Assembly (NCBI GenBank): GCA_033551855.1
Contig: JAWSUI010000001.1
Span: 96,001-160,000 of the forward strand
DNA from: Deferrisomatales bacterium
GTDB lineage: Bacteria; Desulfobacterota; Deferrisomatia; Deferrisomatales; JACRMM01
Reading direction: 5' to 3'
Length of the DNA: 64,000 nt
In this document: positions 49,206 through 64,000 of the stretch, in pieces
How positions within the stretch are numbered: position 1 is the first letter of the stretch
Layout: the number at the start of each line of letters is the position of its first letter
Translations under genes and position numbers: made by a program
Notes under the pieces: model-generated
Told to the model about the DNA's origin: nothing
Seen by the model: the letters and a program-made list of their open reading frames with translations, nothing else
Database searches by the model: none

Positions 49206-49234
49206 TTGACACCCCCCCCGACGCTTGCTAGATT
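49206..49234 (+). promoter_or_regulatory. Putative sigma70 promoter for nifUS
   Basis: TTGACA-17 bp-TAGATT. Confidence 0.6.
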
Positions 49235-49287
49235 CCAGCGGCTATCTTGGACGCCTTGCGGCGATCGCGCTGCGGAGGGATGCCCCG

Positions 49288-50130
49288 ATGTGGGATTACA
49301 CGGATAAGGTCAAGGATCACTTCCTGAACCCGCGCAACGCGGGGAAGATGGCGGACGCGGACGCCGTGGGTGAAGTGGGGAGCCTCGCGTGCGGGGACGC
49401 CCTGCGGTTGTATCTCAAGGTTGCGGACGACCGGATCGTCGATGCCTCGTTCCAGACCTTCGGGTGCGGGAGCGCGATCGCTTCCAGCTCGGCCCTCACG
49501 GAGATGGTCAAGGGCAAGACCCTGGATGAGGCCCTCCGGGTGACGAACCGCGACATTGCGGACTTTCTGGGGGGCCTGCCCAAGGAGAAGATGCATTGCT
49601 CGGTCATGGGACGTGAGGCCCTGGAGGCAGCGATCAACAGCTACCGGGGGATCGAGATTTCGAAGCACGAGCTCGAAGGCGAGGTGGTGTGTGAGTGCTT
49701 CGGGGTGACGGATGCGCAGATTCGGCGGGCCATCGAGGAGAACGACCTCAAGAGCGTCGAGGACGTTACGCACTACACCAAGGCCGGCGGGGGATGCGAG
49801 CGGTGCCTGCCGGACATCGAGCGCATACTGGCGGAGGAGCGGGGAGCCCGGGAGGCGAGACCTGTCCCTGAGGGGGCGGCCCCGAGGAAGCTCACCAACA
49901 TCCAGCGCATTCAGTTGGTGCAGAAGGTGATCGACGAGGAAATCCGGCCGAGCCTGCAGGCTGACGGGGGCGACCTGGAACTCGTGGACGTCGACGGCGG
50001 CACGGTGTACGTGAGCCTGCGGGGCACGTGCACCCATTGCCCGTCCAGCCAGCTGACCCTCAAGGGAGGGGTGGAAGCGCGGCTCCGGGAGATCGTCGAT
50101 CCCGACCTCCAGGTAGTGGAGGTGCAGTGA
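49288..50130 (+). CDS. nifU: Fe-S cluster scaffold NifU
   Basis: [42 protein letters not shown]. Confidence 0.96.
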
Positions 50131-51314
50131 TGGAGACGGTCTACCTGGACAACAACGCCACGACGCGGGTGGACCCCGTGGTCTTCGAGGAGATGCGCCC
50201 GTACTTCTGCGAGCGGTACGGGAACCCCTCGAGCATGCACTCCTTCGGCGGCCACGTGGGGGTGAAGATCGCGGAGGCCCGGGAGCGGGTGGCAGAGCTC
50301 CTCGGCTGCGACCCCCCTGAGATCTTGTTCACTTCCTGCGGGACCGAAGGCGACAGCACGGCTATCCGCTCCGCTTTGGAGGCGCAGCCGGAGAAGCGGC
50401 ACCTCGTGACCACCAAGGTCGAGCACCCGGCGGTGCTGAACCTGGCCAACCACCTGGTCAAGAAGGGTTACCACCTGACCCTTCTCGGGGTGGACGGTGA
50501 CGGGAGGATCGACCTCGAGGAGCTTCGCAGCAGTCTGCGGGACGACACGGCCCTGGTGTCTCTCATGTACGCGAACAACGAGACCGGCACCGTGTTTCCC
50601 TTGCAGCAGGCGGCCGAGATCGTGAAGAGCCGCGGGATCCTCCTCCACACCGACGCCGTGCAGGCCGTGGGGAAGCTGGCCGTGGACCTGCGGACCCTGC
50701 CGGTGGACTTCCTGGTGCTGTCGGGTCACAAGCTCCATGCCCCGAAGGGGGTCGGAGCGCTCTACGTGCGCCGCCGGACGCCGTTTCGGCCGTTTCTCGT
50801 CGGCGGCCACCAGGAGAGAGGCCGTCGGGGAGGCACGGAGAATGCCCCGGGCATCATCGGCCTAGGCAAGGCCTGCGAGCTCGCGGGCGCGAACCTGGCG
50901 GAGGAGAGCGGGCGGGTGAGGGGTCTGCGGGATCGCTTGGAGAAGGGGCTCCTCGAGGCGATCCCCGATGCCCGACGCAACGGCGATCCCATGGAGCGGC
51001 TTCCGAACACTACCAGTCTGGCGTTCAAGTTCGTCGAAGGCGAGGCGATCCTGCTGCTCCTGGATCAGCTGGGCATCTGTGCCAGCTCGGGCTCCGCTTG
51101 CACCTCGGGGAGCCTGGAGCCTTCCCACGTGCTGCGCGCCATGGGGGTACCGTTCACCTATGCCCACGGGTCGATCCGGTTCAGCTTGAGCCGCTTCTCC
51201 ACCGAGGCGGAGGTGGACTTCGTGGTCAGGGAGATGCCGGGAATCATCCAGCGGCTGCGGGCGATATCCCCCTTTCAGGAGGGGGATCAGCCCACGGCCG
51301 CCGGCACCTGCTGA
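50130..51314 (+). CDS. nifS: Cysteine desulfurase NifS
   Basis: YLDNNATT, SGHKLH, SSGSACTS. Confidence 0.96.
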   Translation: METVYLDNNATTRVDPVVFEEMRPYFCERYGNPSSMHSFGGHVGVKIAEARERVAELLGCDPPEILFTSCGTEGDSTAIRSALEAQPEKRHLVTTKVEHPAVLNLANHLVKKGYHLTLLGVDGDGRIDLEELRSSLRDDTALVSLMYANNETGTVFPLQQAAEIVKSRGILLHTDAVQAVGKLAVDLRTLPVDFLVLSGHKLHAPKGVGALYVRRRTPFRPFLVGGHQERGRRGGTENAPGIIGLGKACELAGANLAEESGRVRGLRDRLEKGLLEAIPDARRNGDPMERLPNTTSLAFKFVEGEAILLLLDQLGICASSGSACTSGSLEPSHVLRAMGVPFTYAHGSIRFSLSRFSTEAEVDFVVREMPGIIQRLRAISPFQEGDQPTAAGTC

Positions 51315-52783: not shown

Positions 52784-53197
52784 TCAGCGCCGGCGACCGC
52801 CCACCTGGAGCTGGTTCATCGCCCGCTCCATCTTGGCTTCGGCCTCCAAATACTCCTTTGCCTCCCGGGAGTAGGTCTGCAGCTCCTTCTCGGCCTCGGC
52901 CTTCAATGCTTCGGCCGCTTGAATGTCAATCTCTGCGGGGAACTCGGCCTCCTCGGCCAGCACGGTCACCTTCGCGTGCTGGATCTCGGCGAAACCGCGG
53001 CGGACCGCGAGAAAGTGCTCCTCGGAGCCGATCCGGTACATCAGCTCCCCCACCCCGAGGGCGGTGAAGAACGGCGTGTGCCCGCTCAACACACCGAACT
53101 CCCCCTCGGCGCCCGGGGCGGTGATCTCGGAGACCTCGTCCGCCACGAGCTGCCGGTACGGGGTGACGACCTCCAGGCGAAACGTGTCCTTTGCCAT
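52784..53197 (-). CDS. atpC: ATP synthase epsilon
   Basis: LEVVTP, GEFGVLSGHTP. Confidence 0.95.
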   Translation of the reverse strand: MAKDTFRLEVVTPYRQLVADEVSEITAPGAEGEFGVLSGHTPFFTALGVGELMYRIGSEEHFLAVRRGFAEIQHAKVTVLAEEAEFPAEIDIQAAEALKAEAEKELQTYSREAKEYLEAEAKMERAMNQLQVGGRRR

Positions 53198-53213
53198 GGT
53201 GCTTCTCCGGGCC

Positions 53214-55623
<2,410 letters not shown>

Positions 55624-55639
55624 CCCCGATTCTCCGCCG

Positions 55640-57151
<1,512 letters not shown>

Positions 57152-57158
57152 GGTGGTC

Positions 57159-57701
57159 TCACCCCTTGATCAGAGTTTCTCTCATGCGTTCGAGTTGGGT
57201 GCGCAGGCTGCCGTCGAAGACGAGGTTGCCCACGCGGGCCACCACCCCGCCCAGGAGGGACGGGTCGACGTGGAGCTCGAGCTCCACGTCCTTGCTCAAC
57301 GCCTTGGCAAGCGCTTGGCGCAAGGCCAACACCTGGTGGTCGTGCAGCGGCATCGGCGTGGCGGCTTGTCCGCGCACGCGGCCATCGGCCTCATCGCGCA
57401 TGGCGGAGAAGGCGCGGAGCACGTCACCGAGCTGAGGGAGCTGACGCGCCCCCAGGAGAACCCGGAGGAAGTTGGCGGCCAGCCGATCGAAGGACGCGGA
57501 CGCCAGGACGGCCTCGAGGACCTCGGCCTTGGCCGGGCGGGGCAGGATCGGGCTGAGGAGCGCCGTGCGGAGGTCCTCCTGGGAAGACAGGGCCTCCTGC
57601 ACGCTCGCCAGTTGGTCGGCCACCTCGGCCGTCTTGCCCGCCTCCTGGGCCAGCTCGAAGAGCGCCTTGGCGTAGCGCTGGGCGATTCGCGACCGGATCA
57701 A
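57159..57701 (-). CDS. atpH: ATP synthase delta
   Basis: [17 protein letters not shown]...[11 protein letters not shown] start overlapping the atpF stop. Confidence 0.93.
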
Positions 57702-58267
57702 TGGACCCTCCCGATGTTCTGGATGGTGAGCTCCACCGCCTTCTTCTGGTCTTCCGCCGTGTAGGCCTTGGCCAGGAGCTGCTCCGCCAACTGCACGGAG
57801 AGGGTGGCAACCTCGGTCCGGAGCTCGTCGGTCGCCCGCTTGAGCTCGTGGGCGGCAGCCGACTCCACCTGCCGTCGGATGGACTCGGCGGCCTTCTCGG
57901 CGTCGGCCACGAGGCGGCCGCGCTGGCGCTCCCCCTCGGCCTGGAAGTCTGCGTGAATGGTCCGAATCTCTGCCTGCAGGTCCGCGACGCGGGCCTTGTA
58001 CTCCTGGTAGCGGGCCTCGGCGGCATCCCGCGCCTGGAGGGCTTCCTCCAGCTCCTTCTTGATCGAGTCGCGACGCTGGGCCAGGGCCTGGGTTATGGGC
58101 TTGCGCAGGAAGTAGTACAGCAGGCCCAGGAGGATGCCGAAGTTGACGAACTTCATCGTCAGGTCGTACAGGGGTGGGCGGCCGGTTCCTTCGGCAGCGG
58201 CCCACAGGACGGCAGGGGCGAGGAGCGCCCCGAGGGTCAGGAGCAGTGTCAAGGCGCGACGGCCCAT
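57698..58267 (-). CDS. atpF: ATP synthase subunit b
   Basis: KFVNFGILLGLLYYFLRKPI followed by a coiled coil. Confidence 0.9.
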   Translation of the reverse strand: MGRRALTLLLTLGALLAPAVLWAAAEGTGRPPLYDLTMKFVNFGILLGLLYYFLRKPITQALAQRRDSIKKELEEALQARDAAEARYQEYKARVADLQAEIRTIHADFQAEGERQRGRLVADAEKAAESIRRQVESAAAHELKRATDELRTEVATLSVQLAEQLLAKAYTAEDQKKAVELTIQNIGRVH

Positions 58268-58692
58268 CAGACGGCCCTCCCGAGGATGCGTTGGGCGATG
58301 GATTCGGCGACCTGCCCGGCTTGGGCTCGGAGGGACCGCCGCGCCTCCTCTGCCTCGCCGCGCAAGCGGGCTCGGACCTGGGCCACGGCCTTGTCCGCCT
58401 CAGCGGTGGCCGCGGCCAGCAGACGGTCCCTCTCGGTCTCGCCCTGGCGGACGAGCTGGGTGCGGGACCGGTCGGCATCGGCCTTGGCAGCGTGAATGCG
58501 CTTCTGGTAATCGTCCCAGATGGCCTGGGCTTCGCTCTCGAGCTGTGCCGCCTTCGTCCGGCGCCCCTCGGTTCGCTCCCTCCGTTCCTCGAGGACCCGC
58601 AGCATGGGCCGGAAGAGGATGCGGTTCAGGAGGTACATGAGGAGCAGGAAGTTGACGAGCTGGACGACCAGGGTGGCATTGATGTTGATCAC
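58267..58692 (-). CDS. atpF2: ATP synthase subunit b'
   Basis: INATLVVQLVNFL...LFRP followed by a coiled coil. Confidence 0.9.
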   Translation of the reverse strand: MININATLVVQLVNFLLLMYLLNRILFRPMLRVLEERRERTEGRRTKAAQLESEAQAIWDDYQKRIHAAKADADRSRTQLVRQGETERDRLLAAATAEADKAVAQVRARLRGEAEEARRSLRAQAGQVAESIAQRILGRAV

Positions 58693-58794: not shown

Positions 58795-59049
58795 TCAGAC
58801 CACGAAGATCAGGAGCAGGGCAATCACGAGGGAGTAGATCCCCGTGGATTCGGACACGGCTTGCCCTACGAGCATCGTGCGGGTGAGCAGGTTGGCGTGC
58901 TCGGGGGCTCGGGCGATCCCTTCGCAGGCCTTGCCGGCCGCGAAGCCTTCGCCGATACCGGGGCCTATGGCGCCGAAGCCCATGGCGATGCCTGCGCCCA
59001 ACAGGGCGGCGGCGCGGATGACGTCGGGTCCGCTGATCTCTGGGGTCAT
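58795..59049 (-). CDS. atpE: ATP synthase subunit c, Na+-type signature (84 aa)
   Basis: GPGIGEG and QAVSESTGIY; RBS GGAGG. Confidence 0.95.
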   Translation of the reverse strand: MTPEISGPDVIRAAALLGAGIAMGFGAIGPGIGEGFAAGKACEGIARAPEHANLLTRTMLVGQAVSESTGIYSLVIALLLIFVV

Positions 59050-59077: not shown

Positions 59078-60064
59078 TCAAACGACGTATAGAAGTAGAA
59101 GGGCGACGAGAAGCCCGTAGACGGCGGTGGACTGGCTGACGGCCTGGCCAACGAGCATGGTGCGCACCAGGACTGGCGAGAGGTCCGGGCGACGGCCGAT
59201 GGCACGGCAGGCGGCGGCGGCGGCCGAACCGGAACCGATCCCGGGGCCCGTGGCGGCGAGGCCGGCCGAGATCCCGGCACCGAGCAGGGCTGCAACCGCC
59301 GCCAGGCTGCCGGCGCCCGCATCTCCCGGGTGGGCGAAGACGAGCAGAAAAGCGACGAGCAGTCCGAAGATCGACGGCGTCTGGGCCACGGCCTGTCCCA
59401 TCAGCATAGCACGCAGCAGGGAGGCGTAGCCCGCCGGGCGGCGGGCTATGGCGTGGCAGGCGGCGGCGGCGGTCATCCCGGAGCCGAGGCCGGGCCCAAC
59501 GGCCGAGACGCCGGCCGAGATGGCTGCCGCCGCCAGGGCGGAAGCGGCGCTCGAGAGGGAGCCTGCCGCTTCGAGAGGGACGGCGAAGAGCAAGAGAAAG
59601 GCCATGACGAGGGCAAAGATGGCCGGGGTCTGGGCCACGGCTTGCCCCACGAGCATGGCGGTGGTGACGCGGCCCGCGGCCTGGGGGTGGCGGGCGATGC
59701 CCTTGCAGGCCGCAGCGCCGGCGAGGCCGGCCCCCAGGCCCGGGCCCAGTGCCCCGACGCCCATGCACAGGCCGGCGGCCCCCAGGGCGGCGGCTTGGAG
59801 GAGGCTGGGGACCGGCCGGGCGGTGAACAGGAGCAGCACCGCCACGACGAGGGCGAAGATGCTGGCGGACTCCGCCACGGCCTGGCCCACCAGCATGGTG
59901 CGCTGCACCCTGTGGGCGACGGCCGGCTGCCGCGCGATGGCCGCTGCCGCCGCTTCGGCGGTGCGGCCTTCGCCGATCGCGGCGCCGATGGCCCCCAGAC
60001 CGATGCACAGGCCGGCACCCAACACCGCCGCCGCCTGGGTCCACGCAGCAGGGTCCACGCTCAC
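59078..60064 (-). CDS. Quadruplicated subunit c (four fused hairpins, one Glu site)
   Basis: Four repeats of GxGxG...IAR.P...MLxGQAV; E65 in repeat 1, Q145/Q228/Q311 in repeats 2-4. Confidence 0.93.
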   Translation of the reverse strand: MSVDPAAWTQAAAVLGAGLCIGLGAIGAAIGEGRTAEAAAAAIARQPAVAHRVQRTMLVGQAVAESASIFALVVAVLLLFTARPVPSLLQAAALGAAGLCMGVGALGPGLGAGLAGAAACKGIARHPQAAGRVTTAMLVGQAVAQTPAIFALVMAFLLLFAVPLEAAGSLSSAASALAAAAISAGVSAVGPGLGSGMTAAAACHAIARRPAGYASLLRAMLMGQAVAQTPSIFGLLVAFLLVFAHPGDAGAGSLAAVAALLGAGISAGLAATGPGIGSGSAAAAACRAIGRRPDLSPVLVRTMLVGQAVSQSTAVYGLLVALLLLYVV

Positions 60065-60735
60065 TCCTGGAGGGCCACGGAAATGTATGTGAGGGTGAGC
60101 ATCGCGAAGACGAAGGCCTGCACGGTGCCCACGAAGAGGCCAAAGAACGCGCTGAGCAGGGGCGGGAAGATGAGGTGGTGGACGAGGTGGCTCACGACGA
60201 GGATGATGATCGAGCCCCCCATCACGTTCCCGTAGAGGCGAAAAGACATGGAGACGACCTTCGCCGCTTCACCAATCACGTTGAGAGGGAACATGAAGAA
60301 GAACGGCTGAAAGTACTCTTTGAGGTAGGCGCGCCAGCCCTTGGCCTTTACCGCCGCCGCTTGAGCTGTCAGGAAGGCGATTAGAGCCAGGATCAAGGTG
60401 GTGTTGAGGTCCTTTGTGGGTTCTTGCAGGAACGGGATCATCCCCAGCCAGTTGGAAATCAGGATGAAGATGAACAGGGTCAGGACCAACGGGTAGTAAC
60501 GGGGACCCCGTTTGCCGAGGGTTTCCCGGACCAGGTCCCGGAAGCCCCCGACCACGACTTCGGCCAAACTCTGGAGGGCCCCGGGCACCAGGGTGGGGCG
60601 GCGCGAGACCGCCATCCCGAGGGCGACGAGCACGGCCATGACGACCCAGGACATCAGGAGGGTGGTCGCGTTCAAGACGACGTCGCGACCGGCGAAGGGA
60701 AGAACCCAGTGGGGGATGTGGGTGATGGCTTCCAT
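60061..60735 (-). CDS. atpB: ATP synthase subunit a
   Basis: PTKDLNTT, PLNVIGE, SMSFRLYGN, VQAFVFAMLTLTY. Confidence 0.95.
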   Translation of the reverse strand: MEAITHIPHWVLPFAGRDVVLNATTLLMSWVVMAVLVALGMAVSRRPTLVPGALQSLAEVVVGGFRDLVRETLGKRGPRYYPLVLTLFIFILISNWLGMIPFLQEPTKDLNTTLILALIAFLTAQAAAVKAKGWRAYLKEYFQPFFFMFPLNVIGEAAKVVSMSFRLYGNVMGGSIIILVVSHLVHHLIFPPLLSAFFGLFVGTVQAFVFAMLTLTYISVALQE

Positions 60736-60757: not shown

Positions 60758-61141
60758 TCAATCGCCCCCGCAGGGGCCCAGAAGGCTGCCCGCGAGGAGA
60801 ACGGCGGGCCCCGCGAAGAGGCCGAGTGCGGCGGACCCGAGGGAAACCCCGGGGAGGGCGTAAGCGGCTCCCAGGGCGCCGGCCCGCAGGCCGGTTCGCA
60901 GGAGCGACCCCAATCGGGCGCGCCGGCCGGCCAGGCGCGGGGGCGCCGTGACGTGGCGGGCGATCTGCGTTCCGAGCAGATGCACAGCCGCTGCGCTCGC
61001 GAGGCTCCCGAGCAAGAAGCCCTTGGCCTCCGGCGATCCACCGAGCAAGCCCAGCAGAGCGGCACCGCCCAGTCCGAGGAGCCCCGCCCCGGCAGCGGCT
61101 CCGAGACGAAACCGGCGGAAGACATCGACGGTGGAAGTCAC
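60758..61141 (-). CDS. atpI: ATP synthase accessory protein I (4-TM)
   Basis: Hydrophobic about 127-aa ORF between atpZ and atpB. Confidence 0.65.
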   Translation of the reverse strand: MTSTVDVFRRFRLGAAAGAGLLGLGGAALLGLLGGSPEAKGFLLGSLASAAAVHLLGTQIARHVTAPPRLAGRRARLGSLLRTGLRAGALGAAYALPGVSLGSAALGLFAGPAVLLAGSLLGPCGGD

Positions 61142-61410
61142 CGTTGCCTCCTCTCGGCCCGGCGCCCCGTCTCGGTGACGATCCGGTAGACAGCCCAGAA
61201 GCCGGAAAGGGCCCCCAGGGGAATGAAGAGGGCTTTCCAGAGCCCCCGGTGCCCGGTCCACTGGTCGAGGTAGTACCCCAAGGCAAAGCCGATGCCCACC
61301 GCGGCGACCATCGTCAGGCCCAAATGCGTGAGGAGGCCGAGGTGCTCCATGAGGTCCTTCATCTCCTTGGGATTGAAGTTCCTCTTGCGTGTCGGCTGGT
61401 TAGGTACCAT
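61138..61410 (-). CDS. atpZ: AtpZ/AtpI-like small membrane protein
   Basis: GIGFALGYYLDQWTG...LGALSGF; start uncertain. Confidence 0.8.
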   Translation of the reverse strand: MVPNQPTRKRNFNPKEMKDLMEHLGLLTHLGLTMVAAVGIGFALGYYLDQWTGHRGLWKALFIPLGALSGFWAVYRIVTETGRRAERRQR

Positions 61411-61754: not shown

Positions 61755-62612
61755 TCAGCGGCCGGATGCCTCGAGGAGGGACAGGAGGCGATCCAAGTCG
61801 TCCAGACTGCGGTAGTCGATGCGGATGCTGCCGGCCCCCTTCTTCTTGGCCGGCTGCACGGACACCCGGGTGCCCAGTCGGCGGCCGAGGCGGTCCTCGA
61901 GCGCTCGTACGTTGGGGTCCTTCGGCGGTGCGGGGGCAGGTCCCGCCGCAGGCCTTCGCGCGAGGGCCTCCGCCTCCCGCACGGACAGACCGCGGCGGAG
62001 GACCTGGCGGAGCAACTCGAGTCGGGCCGCGTCTCCGGTGACGGTGAGAAGGGCGCGGGCGTGGCCGGCGGAGAGGGTGCCGTCGCGCAGGGCCTGGAGC
62101 GCCTCCTCCGGCAGCCCCAGCAGCCGCAAGGCGTTTGCAACGGCGGCCCGGGACTTCCCGATTCGGGCGGCGAGGGCCTCCTGGGAGAGCCGGGCTCGGT
62201 CGAGAAGCAGTCGGTAAGCCTGGGCCTCCTCTACAGGATTGAGGTCCTCGCGCTGGAGGTTCTCCACCAAGGCCATTTCAAGGACTTCGTCTTCGTCGGC
62301 CTGGCGCACGATCGCAGGAACCTCGGTCAGCCCGGCGCGCTGGGCGGCTCGCCAGCGGCGCTCGCCCGCGATGAGCTCGTAGGCGCCGGACGCGGACCGT
62401 CGCAAGATCACGGGTTGGATGAGCCCCTTCTCGCGAATCGACTGCGCGAGCTCCTCGAGCGTCCCGTCCGGAAAGTGCTGGCGGGGTTGGTGGGGGCTCG
62501 GGTGAATCTCCTCCACGGGGCAGAGGAAGAACTCTCCTTCCAGGCGGTCGGGGAGCAGGGCGTCGAGCCCCGAGCCGAGGGCAGGGCGGGGGCGTTTCGC
62601 GGTCTGAGCCAT
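61755..62612 (-). CDS. parB: Chromosome partitioning protein ParB
   Basis: [31 protein letters not shown]. Confidence 0.96.
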
Positions 62613-62635
62613 GGGGGTCCTCTGGGGGCGCCGCC

Positions 62636-63421
62636 CTAAGCGGCGACGGGGGGCTGTGGGGCCGCCGGCCGGATCAGCTCCCTGGCCATGCGCAGGTAGC
62701 CCTGGGCCCCGCTGGAGCGGATGTCGTACAGGAGGGCCGGCTTCCCGTGGCTCGGCGACTCACTCAGGCGCACGTTGCGGGGGATGACCGAGCGGAAGAC
62801 CTTGTCCTTGAAGTGGCGCTTGACCTCGTCGGCCACTTGGTGGCTGAGGTTGTTTCGGGGATCGAACATGGTGAGCAGAATCCCCTCGATCTCCAGCCGG
62901 GGGTTGAAGCCGCGCTTGACCGTCCGGACCGTGTGGAGGAGCTGGGAGAGCCCCTCGAGGGCATAGTATTCGCACTGGAGGGGGATGATGACGGCGTCGG
63001 ATGCCACCAGGGCATTGATGGTGAGCAGACCAAGGCTCGGGGGGCAGTCCACCAGGATGTAATCGTACTCTTGTCGAACGGGCGCGAGGGCCTCCCGGAG
63101 ACGGAACTCCCTCCGATTCGCGGTGACGAGCTCGACCTCCGCCCCGGACAGGTCGCGGGAGGCCGGCACCAGGAACAAGTGGCCCAAGGCGGTGGAGCGG
63201 GTCGCGGAGGCTGCGGGAGCCTGCCCCGTCAGGACGTGGTAGGAGGTGAGCTCCCCGGGCCCTGCCCGCTGTCCCAGCCCGCTGGTCGCATTGGACTGGG
63301 GGTCCGCGTCGAAGAGGAGCACCCTCTTCTCCGCAGCGGCGAGGGACGCGGCGAGGTTCACGGCGGTGGTGGTCTTGCCGACGCCGCCCTTCTGGTTGGC
63401 CAACGAGAGAATGCGAGCCAT
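62636..63421 (-). CDS. parA: Chromosome partitioning ATPase ParA/Soj
   Basis: NQKGGVGKTTT, DPQSN, DCPPSLG, QCEYYALEG. Confidence 0.96.
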   Translation of the reverse strand: MARILSLANQKGGVGKTTTAVNLAASLAAAEKRVLLFDADPQSNATSGLGQRAGPGELTSYHVLTGQAPAASATRSTALGHLFLVPASRDLSGAEVELVTANRREFRLREALAPVRQEYDYILVDCPPSLGLLTINALVASDAVIIPLQCEYYALEGLSQLLHTVRTVKRGFNPRLEIEGILLTMFDPRNNLSHQVADEVKRHFKDKVFRSVIPRNVRLSESPSHGKPALLYDIRSSGAQGYLRMARELIRPAAPQPPVAA

Positions 63422-63556
63422 GGACACCTCCCAACGCGGGACGTTACCACAGGGCCGGCGAGGAGGGAACGGGCTTGCGCGAACCTGTGGCGGGCGGTCC
63501 CCACGGGGTTGTGCGGGGGGGGCGGGACGCGCGCAGGAACCCGGTTCGTGCCGCGG

Positions 63557-63572
63557 TGTTTCACGTGAAACA
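63557..63572. promoter_or_regulatory. parS site
   Basis: Perfect palindrome TGTTTCACGTGAAACA between rsmG and parA. Confidence 0.95.
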
Positions 63573-63585
63573 GCCCCGGGGGGGC

Positions 63586-64000
63586 TCAGTCGATCCTCCG
63601 ATATACTTGCAGTCGTCGGGGCCCGGCGCCGGGGGGGGGTGGGTACTCCAGATCCTCCACCGAGCTCCAGCCGATAGGCGGCTCCGCGGGGCCGGACCCC
63701 AGGAGCAGGAAGACGTCGCCCGAGGGAGCGAGGAAAGGGCGCGCGGACTTCAGCAGGGAGTGTGGGGCGGCCAAGGCCCTGGCGGTGACGGACGCAAAGC
63801 TCCCGGCCAGCTCGGGCTGTTCCCGAAGGGCTTCTTCGTGACGGGACTGCACCACACGGACCCGGCCGAGGCCCAGGACCCGGACCGCGTGGCGCAGGAA
63901 GCTCGCGCGCTTGCCCAGGGGCTCCAGGCAGACCACCACGGCGCCGGGCCACGCCAGAGCGATGGGGAGGGCCGGAAGGCCGGCGCCGCTGCCGATGTCC
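63586..64000 (-). CDS. rsmG: 16S rRNA m7G527 methyltransferase RsmG (5' end outside the window)
   Basis: DIGSGAGLP, E..GKRASFL, VTARAL; precedes parA. Confidence 0.9.
   Translation of the reverse strand, partial: DIGSGAGLPALPIALAWPGAVVVCLEPLGKRASFLRHAVRVLGLGRVRVVQSRHEEALREQPELAGSFASVTARALAAPHSLLKSARPFLAPSGDVFLLLGSGPAEPPIGWSSVEDLEYPPPPGAGPRRLQVYRRID

Follow-up and report, generated by a model that had tools for sequence, protein, structure and literature searches.

A four-hairpin c subunit in a complete F-type ATPase operon

The window (the whole stretch of Deferrisomatales bacterium DNA analysed here, 64,000 nucleotides) contains a complete F-type ATPase operon on the reverse strand, in which the gene for a long, atpE1-like c subunit (59078..60064), here called c4, sits between atpB and a single-hairpin atpE. 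Pfam matches identified atpZ-like gene 1 (61138-61356), atpI (60758-61120, a match under the curated cut-off), atpB for subunit a (60061..60735, the stop of which overlaps the c4 start region), atpE (58795..59049), b' (58267-58692) and b (57698-58267), all on the same strand. The genes for delta, alpha, gamma, beta and epsilon (52784..57704, same strand) were recognized by eye in the ORF translations, which were then compared with the genome by tblastn. The ORF translations also indicated, by eye, an ordinary context on either side of the operon, with rsmG-parA-parB upstream (61755-64000) and nifU/nifS-like genes downstream (49225-51314).

The c4 ORF (59078-60064, reverse strand) is stop-free over 328 aa and has four PF00137 (ATP-synt_C) stretches; together with an AF2 model, these describe a four-hairpin (8-helix) c subunit with one predicted net Na+ site. 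Translation probably starts at the GTG at 60058, giving 326 aa, because this is the recorded length of the protein (P0003) and a Shine-Dalgarno-like AGGAG lies 5 nt upstream. With a start two codons later, the residue numbers used here may therefore be two lower. Pairwise identity is 46–57% among the four hairpins and 44–59% between each of them and the single c.

The single c carries the full two-carboxylate Na+ motif (E34...E67-S68-T69-x-x-Y72, ESTGIY), the elements of which are divided between the two ends of c4. Hairpin 1 (residues 5-80, 59825..60052) keeps E32 (59969-59971) and E65 (59870-59872) in the motif E65-S-A-S-I-F70, with T67 replaced by Ala and Y70 by Phe. Hairpin 4 (residues 253-327, 59084..59308) has no carboxylate and reads Q311-S312-T313-A-V-Y316, preserving the donor half of a site (S312/T313 at 59126-59131, Y316 at 59117-59119). 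Between them, hairpin 2 (residues 88-160, 59585..59803; Q145-T-P-A-I-F) and hairpin 3 (residues 170-242, 59339..59557; Q228-T-P-S-I-F) appear silent. Position 32 is Ala in hairpin 2 and Ser in hairpins 3 and 4, the hairpins that lack a carboxylate. A preliminary description of this sequence had assigned E32, E65 and S66 to hairpin 1, with T67 and Y70 lost, and S-T-x-x-Y without Glu to hairpin 4; these residue readings are correct, except that the hairpin-1 S66 is part of the half facing hairpin 2 and not of the outer site. Its statement that hairpins 2 and 3 had lost both halves is true of the carboxylate and of STxxY, but these hairpins are not blank, since an invariant Gln65-Thr66-(Pro67) is retained.

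Direction of the half-sites

Whether such half-sites face outward follows from the order in which neighboring hairpins share ligands. Each site in the rings of Ilyobacter and Fusobacterium takes Q/E32 and E65 from one subunit and V63, S66 and Y70 from its neighbor, according to the available text of two published accounts (PMC2359735, PMC3692424). The first of these also describes the site of Enterococcus hirae NtpK as shared by its two hairpins, with T64/Y68 coming from the first and Q110/E139 from the second (ligands L61, T64, Q65, Y68, Q110 and E139; PMC2359735), and STxxY of hairpin n therefore pairs with the Glu of hairpin n+1. The same n/n+1 rule is given in the accessible part of a 2026 preprint (10.64898/2026.10.01.756066).

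The AF2 model of c4 (pLDDT 94.0, pTM 0.91) folds as a four-hairpin arc. It superposed on chain J of 4BEM (TM 0.81 of target, rmsd 1.7 Å) and on chain A of 2BL2 (TM 0.81 of target, rmsd 2.3 Å) over 159 columns in each case, covering both hairpins in sequence order; the handedness therefore transfers, and the hairpin-1 E65 and hairpin-4 STxxY face outward in the model. The outer helix is broken at Q145, ahead of P147, and again at Q228, likewise ahead of a proline, which suggests for the modelled structure that Pro67 fixes a kink otherwise tied to ion binding.

A modelled complex of c4 with two single c subunits scored 0.67 against 0.06 for the best control, with at least 97% contact agreement between runs and partner pLDDT of at least 78. 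The mark used for this score was reached by 116/157 solved and 2/215 mismatched pairs, counts that are only roughly valid for a complex of this kind. Because a similar complex has already been solved (4BEM), the score shows likeness and not binding, and it may reflect memory of 4BEM by the predictor. The direction of the half-sites is based on three lines of evidence, namely superposition of the folds, the rule taken from the literature and the lists of interface residues. In the latter, c4 contributes E32 and E65 but not positions 63, 66, 67 or 70 of hairpin 1, residues 309-314 and 316 of hairpin 4, and none from between residues 80 and 253. The c subunit at the hairpin-4 side presents E34/E67 and not S68, T69 or Y72, and the one at the hairpin-1 side presents V65/S68/T69/Y72 and not E67. 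The complete ligand set (E/Q32, E65, S66, T67, Y70) is thus available in the complex model at the two outer interfaces alone, whereas all three inner interfaces lack a carboxylate in both the sequence and the model. The expectation that both outer faces complete a site with a neighboring c was borne out to this extent: E32/E65 and S312/T313/Y316 are set against complementary halves, and the NtpK rule, the superpositions on NtpK and c1 and the complex model agree on the outward facing of E65 and STxxY.

Conservation of the polarity among homologs

Near homologs were drawn from the matches listed (119 of 1834 besides c4 itself, with 4, 5 or 6 hairpins each), and residues were counted on 118 of them after one N-terminally odd protein was excluded. 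Among these listed matches, the first hairpin had E65 and F70 in 118/118 proteins, and the middle hairpins had Q65 and F/L70 in 355/355 cases with an invariant Ser/Thr66. The last cassette hairpin had Q65 in 118/118, Y70 in 114/118 and Asn at position 32 in 104/118. The full pattern of Glu first, silent middle and STxxY last was found in listed matches with five (66), six (26) and four (4) hairpins, and 22 of the listed near homologs carried an extra fused, c-like terminal hairpin with ESTxIY.

The preliminary description had made its reading depend on whether the asymmetry is conserved, and the best 80 of 431 GTDB loci agreed with it closely. Among the 78 of these 80 with 3–6 hairpins (the other two being an intact double c), the first hairpin was acidic in 77/78 and never carried Y70 (0/78), the last had STxxY in 77/78, and the middle hairpins were acidic in 4/162. 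A single c adjoined the fused c in 80/80 of these best loci, one of them cut at a contig end. Their titles were mostly those of Desulfobacterales or other deltaproteobacteria, with a few other groups. Relatives of the same order showed the polarity in 10/10 complete genes. Where an inner hairpin in the best 80 of 431 loci did carry E/Q32 and E65, the preceding hairpin had Y70 (15/15 vs 0/225; 15/17 if Asp32 is admitted). This covariation was dropped as the main proof of direction, given that 12 of the 15 cases are a normal c fused C-terminally and that it was not significant in more diverse sequences (below); in addition, kin are not independent.

The pattern was looser in distant homologs. 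We clustered these at 50% into 150 representatives and kept 95, after dropping 55 that were truncated or had fewer than 3 or more than 6 hairpins. The first hairpin was acidic in 86 of the 95, and Y70 occurred in the last hairpin of 85, the first of 2 and 5/161 middle hairpins. The last hairpin was also acidic in 64 and the middle hairpins in 63/161, the full STxxY was in the last hairpin of only 42, and the covariation of Y70 with Glu was not significant (P = 0.09). As far as these sequences indicate, Glu first and Tyr last is general, and exactly one site is limited to the clade of this gene.

The association also held from the side of the single c. When it was used as query against 201 genomes of the phylum (E ≤ 1e-28), 18 other loci were found, several in genomes already included in the other comparisons, and a fused c was adjacent in 18/18. 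Sixteen of these partners were polarized, one was cut by a contig end and one was an all-intact double. A search for longer forms gave three matches, all of the archaeal type, in which almost all hairpins carry Glu and Tyr. A polarized cassette of more than six hairpins was not seen, which is weak evidence.

Selection and origin of the fourth hairpin

Hairpins 1–4 had dN/dS ratios of 0.136, 0.140, 0.101 and 0.125, compared with 0.038 for the single c (simple counting on 15 disjoint pairs from 53 four-hairpin genes, one distant pair including this c4). Purifying selection, as gauged from these ratios, is acting on all four hairpins, which evolve approximately three times faster than the single c.

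Three hairpins were present in 8/10 complete genes of same-order relatives, and hairpin 3 of c4 is chimeric. At diagnostic columns, its N-terminal part is of the last type in 6/10 (middle type in 2, neither in 2), and its C-terminal part is of the middle type in 8/9. Comparison of out-of-phase units gave 52/82 identical residues between 138-220 and 221-303, compared with 44/80 and 40/79 in the other comparisons. The fourth unit thus most likely arose, on this residue evidence, by internal duplication of an already silent interface in a three-hairpin ancestor, leaving both ends untouched. Convergent silencing of hairpin 3, hinted at by a hairpin tree (71 columns, modest support, used as a lead only), was rejected in favor of this duplication on account of the chimeric columns and unit identities. 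The earlier proposal that the split ligands reflect selection for ring incorporation is supported within limits: the polarity is maintained under purifying selection (dN/dS 0.10–0.14), but because a silent interface was most likely duplicated, the asymmetry was inherited and not freshly selected, and incorporation itself is a modelled property.

Two a/c modules and one F-type F1

The assembly is 100% complete with 4.16% contamination, and tblastn found the F-type F1/b/b' set in it once, in the c4 operon. A second atpZ-atpI-atpB-atpE operon on contig C9 (L081, G000:C9:307-2120) is without b or F1 genes, and must therefore share the F1, b and b' of the c4 operon if it is used. Its c subunit reads Q...ESLVIY and, lacking T67, is probably of the H+ type judging by this motif. 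An N-ATPase operon is also present on contig C13 (L082, G000:C13:3816-16559), with a c subunit reading E...ESTAIY and about 6 kb of unrelated genes between gamma and alpha. Candidates for a Na+ cycle comprise one RnfD/NqrB-family gene and two decarboxylase beta subunits, and the genome also has a membrane pyrophosphatase gene.

Two a subunits were found in 13/20 relatives and two full F-type gamma genes in 0/20; the other 7/20 had a single a subunit, some of these genomes being incomplete. The gamma gene of one relative (G007:C14:115826-116682) matched in several pieces, which suggests frameshifts or sequencing error. The usual module at the GTDB loci is a-cN-c-b'-b without F1 genes, with alpha downstream in 5/63 loci that have at least 3 kb of flank. 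Each of five named genomes (5/5) had one strong gamma match and a separate single c elsewhere, four of these reading Q...ESLCIY.

Comparison with known c subunits

The best sequence and fold match of c4 is the c1 subunit of Acetobacterium woodii (4BEM chain J), also known from Clostridium aceticum. Its gene likewise lies ahead of a single c, and it has one net site, with E79-T-S-G-I-F84 in the first hairpin and Q162-T-T-G-I-Y167 in the last (alignment-counted numbers). As in c1, fused F-type hairpins lie beside a single c in an F-type operon, with E first and Gln plus STxxY last, and the partner c of c4 carries the complete Na+ motif (E34...ESTGIY), as expected for the partner of a c1. With four hairpins and not exactly two, c4 is therefore a variant and not c1 proper. 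Where c1 has two hairpins and one empty site, c4 has four hairpins and three consecutive sites predicted to be empty; both hairpins of c1 have Gln at position 32 and neither is a QTP hairpin, whereas c4 belongs to the two-carboxylate E32/E65 site type. A further difference from c1 is that two a/c modules accompany the one F1 in the genome of c4. In the available text of the sources, the A. woodii ring is composed of nine single c and one c1 with 10 sites (PMC9171764, PMC7793690) in 11 hairpins (PMC7793690), the hybrid enzyme makes ATP from 90 mV (PMC9171764), and both A. woodii and C. aceticum are described as having lost the hairpin-2 carboxylate (PMC7911925). The same polarity being present in c1 (4BEM), the half-site principle is already known.

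The V/A-type double c of E. hirae (NtpK, 2BL2) shares with c4 the fused hairpins, one site per subunit and the same N-to-C handedness. It differs in its opposite polarity, with the site lying within the subunit and STxxY preceding Glu, its homo-oligomeric ring and its A/V-type enzyme; the half-sites of c4 are reversed and its operon neighbors are F-type a, b' and b, which sets it apart from the NtpK type. The c11 rings of Fusobacterium nucleatum and Ilyobacter tartaricus (3ZK1, 1YCE) use the same interface ligands (E/Q32, V63, E65, S66, T67, Y70), and the single c found here is of the Fusobacterium E32/E65 form, but these are homomeric single-hairpin rings with every site filled, unlike the ring proposed for c4. 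Several hairpins per chain are likewise found in archaeal c/K subunits (the Methanocaldococcus jannaschii triple and Methanopyrus kandleri 13-mer, in the accessible text of PMC2359735). These differ from c4 in being A-type, keeping most or all sites and having no separate single c for end sites.

The 2015 survey by Brandt and Muller reportedly included operons in which short and long c genes occur together, and may therefore list such proteins. It was, together with Matthies 2014, outside the literature covered, in which we found no description of 3–6-hairpin, one-site F-type c subunits. A 2026 mBio paper, in the part available, records two to four atpE copies in Desulfatiglandales and leaves them unresolved (PMC13343851), and the available part of the 2026 preprint mentions STxxY in second hairpins and "several multi-hairpin structures" (10.64898/2026.10.01.756066). 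The polarity principle is known; the length series and the long empty stretch are apparently undescribed, and the series is puzzling in terms of mechanism. The present analysis adds a direct test of which way the half-sites face, an origin of the fourth unit by duplication and, from the search with the single c, its obligate pairing with a fused gene.

A putative spacer in a hybrid Na+ ring

On a slight balance of probability, we consider c4 a functional spacer in a hybrid Na+ c-ring, each end of which completes a site with a normal c. It would be built into the ring, probably in one copy as is A. woodii c1, where it would fill four positions and remove three consecutive ion sites, and each turn would move three fewer Na+. 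The neutral Gln65-Thr66-Pro67 of the silent hairpins would probably mimic the ion-locked packing and helix kink while carrying no charge. With one copy, an 11-hairpin ring would have 8 ions (2.67 per ATP) and a gap of 131 degrees between carboxylates, a 12-hairpin ring 9 ions (3.0 per ATP, 120 degrees) and a 15-hairpin ring 12 ions (4.0 per ATP, 96 degrees). An 11-hairpin ring cannot be assumed, because the inner helix of known Na+ rings is one residue shorter in alignment (seen for A. woodii) than here. Ring size could not be taken from the glycine motif, which proved unusable, and a published ring-size survey states in its available text that sequences longer than 250 aa were excluded (10.1101/2024.02.27.582367). 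Counterpoints to the spacer reading are that some homologs have lost even the end halves (L078) and that 7/20 relatives, some of them incomplete genomes, showed a single a subunit.

The Na+ motor may constitute the second a/c module of a one-F1 cell, a low-gear Na+ option beside the H+-type motor. By reasoning, ATP-driven Na+ export that builds up a steep Na+ gradient seems a somewhat more likely main use than ATP synthesis, because a gap near or above 120 degrees would be easy to cross under F1 torque and hard on ion power. By analogy, the A. woodii hybrid enzyme, which makes ATP, would argue against a lean toward pumping, as would the position of the c4 module at the head of an F1 operon. 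A bolder version, which we think unlikely, is that a working F1Fo still makes ATP although its ion-blind arc spans at least one catalytic step of 120 degrees (three empty sites here and up to five in six-hairpin homologs). It would do so at 2.7–2.0 Na+/ATP, assuming an 11-hairpin ring, and lineages would change gear through gain or loss of a single silent repeat and by switching Na+ and H+ motors on the same F1. If true, ATP-yield estimates would shift for abundant sulfate-reducer-type bacteria. The natural series of one to five consecutive empty positions would open to direct testing the old question of how far a rotor coasts without ion torque and how much elastic energy the enzyme stores.

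The arc could instead serve in the ring as a parking position or leak stop: if two a/c modules compete for one F1, a Na+ motor without its F1 head would leak, and an ion-blind arc would stall against subunit a until F1 drives it. We regard this as rather unlikely, though it accounts for one F-type F1 set serving two a/c modules here, for relatives that have two a subunits (13/20) and never two full F-type gamma genes, for the scarcity of alpha downstream (only 5/63 loci with at least 3 kb of flank) and for the single strong gamma and separate single c of the five named genomes (5/5). A gap ranging from 2 to 6 hairpins would also be tolerable for a stop. Against it, the F1 operon itself begins with this module, both here and in close relatives, and the two-hairpin form of A. 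woodii is in an ordinary complete operon and makes ATP.

A role of c4 as assembly nucleus or size template for the ring (a pre-curved arc, possibly handled by AtpI), with loss of the inner sites a by-product and any change in ion ratio incidental, strikes us as improbable. It would fit the finding that the single c of this clade was not seen without a fused partner (18/18 loci in the 201 phylum genomes). Some fused partners in the comparisons as a whole are all-intact doubles (L069, L070, L150), so that what is required may be the fusion and not the silencing. Strict exclusion of Glu would not, however, be needed in a pure scaffold, and Gln65 was present in 355/355 middle hairpins among the matches listed.

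Rings built of several c4 copies or of c4 alone, for example a 12-hairpin (c4)3 ring in which 120 degrees separate each of three sites from the next, are very improbable. The two ends of c4 would complement each other by the half-site rule, but ATP synthesis at about one Na+ per ATP is implausible on energetic grounds, forms with five hairpins predominate among the near-homolog matches listed, and an intact single c lies beside the fused gene at 80/80 of the best 80 of 431 loci (one cut at a contig end). It is scarcely credible that nothing is silenced and that Gln65 and Thr66, with backbone carbonyls, still hold Na+ or H+ at the inner interfaces. The invariance of Gln65 and Ser/Thr66 in the middle hairpins and the presence of Asn32 in 104/118 last hairpins among the matches listed might suggest so, yet there is no charge-balancing carboxylate, T67 and Y70 have been lost, c4 has Ala or Ser at position 32, and published accounts of A. 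woodii describe the equivalent Gln site as empty (10 sites for 11 hairpins). Decay of a duplicate outside the enzyme, to which the faster evolution of c4 relative to the single c might point, is effectively refuted by the intact frame, dN/dS of 0.10–0.14, the polarity across 3–6-hairpin forms and the fixed place between atpB and atpE, in keeping with the preliminary description, which had preferred a functional spacer to a decaying duplicate.

Variant and longer multi-hairpin forms

Several variants were observed in the comparisons. A four-hairpin c in a record titled Nitrospirales (L078:5036-6016) has neither carboxylate nor STxxY at its ends; its gene adjoins that of an intact single c, and the F1Fo operon around them is full. 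Three other four-hairpin forms (L007:5998-6972, L064:5719-6702 and L010:5995-6972) have a restored or retained inner site, with Y70 in hairpin 2 and E32/E65 in hairpin 3, and are natural controls for the gearing idea. Cultured carriers include Desulfatibacillum alkenivorans and Desulfacinum infernum, whose forms carry an intact c fused at the end and leave two sites empty.

A large distant clade (P0197-P0268 range) comprises four-hairpin c subunits in which position 65 is E, Q, E and D(E) in turn and Tyr70 is found solely in the last hairpin. Single-chain c subunits of 15 hairpins (I...EALGIY type) were represented by P0123, P0124 and P0154, of which P0124 is from a Promethearchaeota archaeon according to one source; longer than the 13-hairpin M. 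kandleri protein, they may form a whole ring in one chain. Forms with 13, 10, 8 and 7 hairpins were also present (P0176, P0216, P0242 and P0199).
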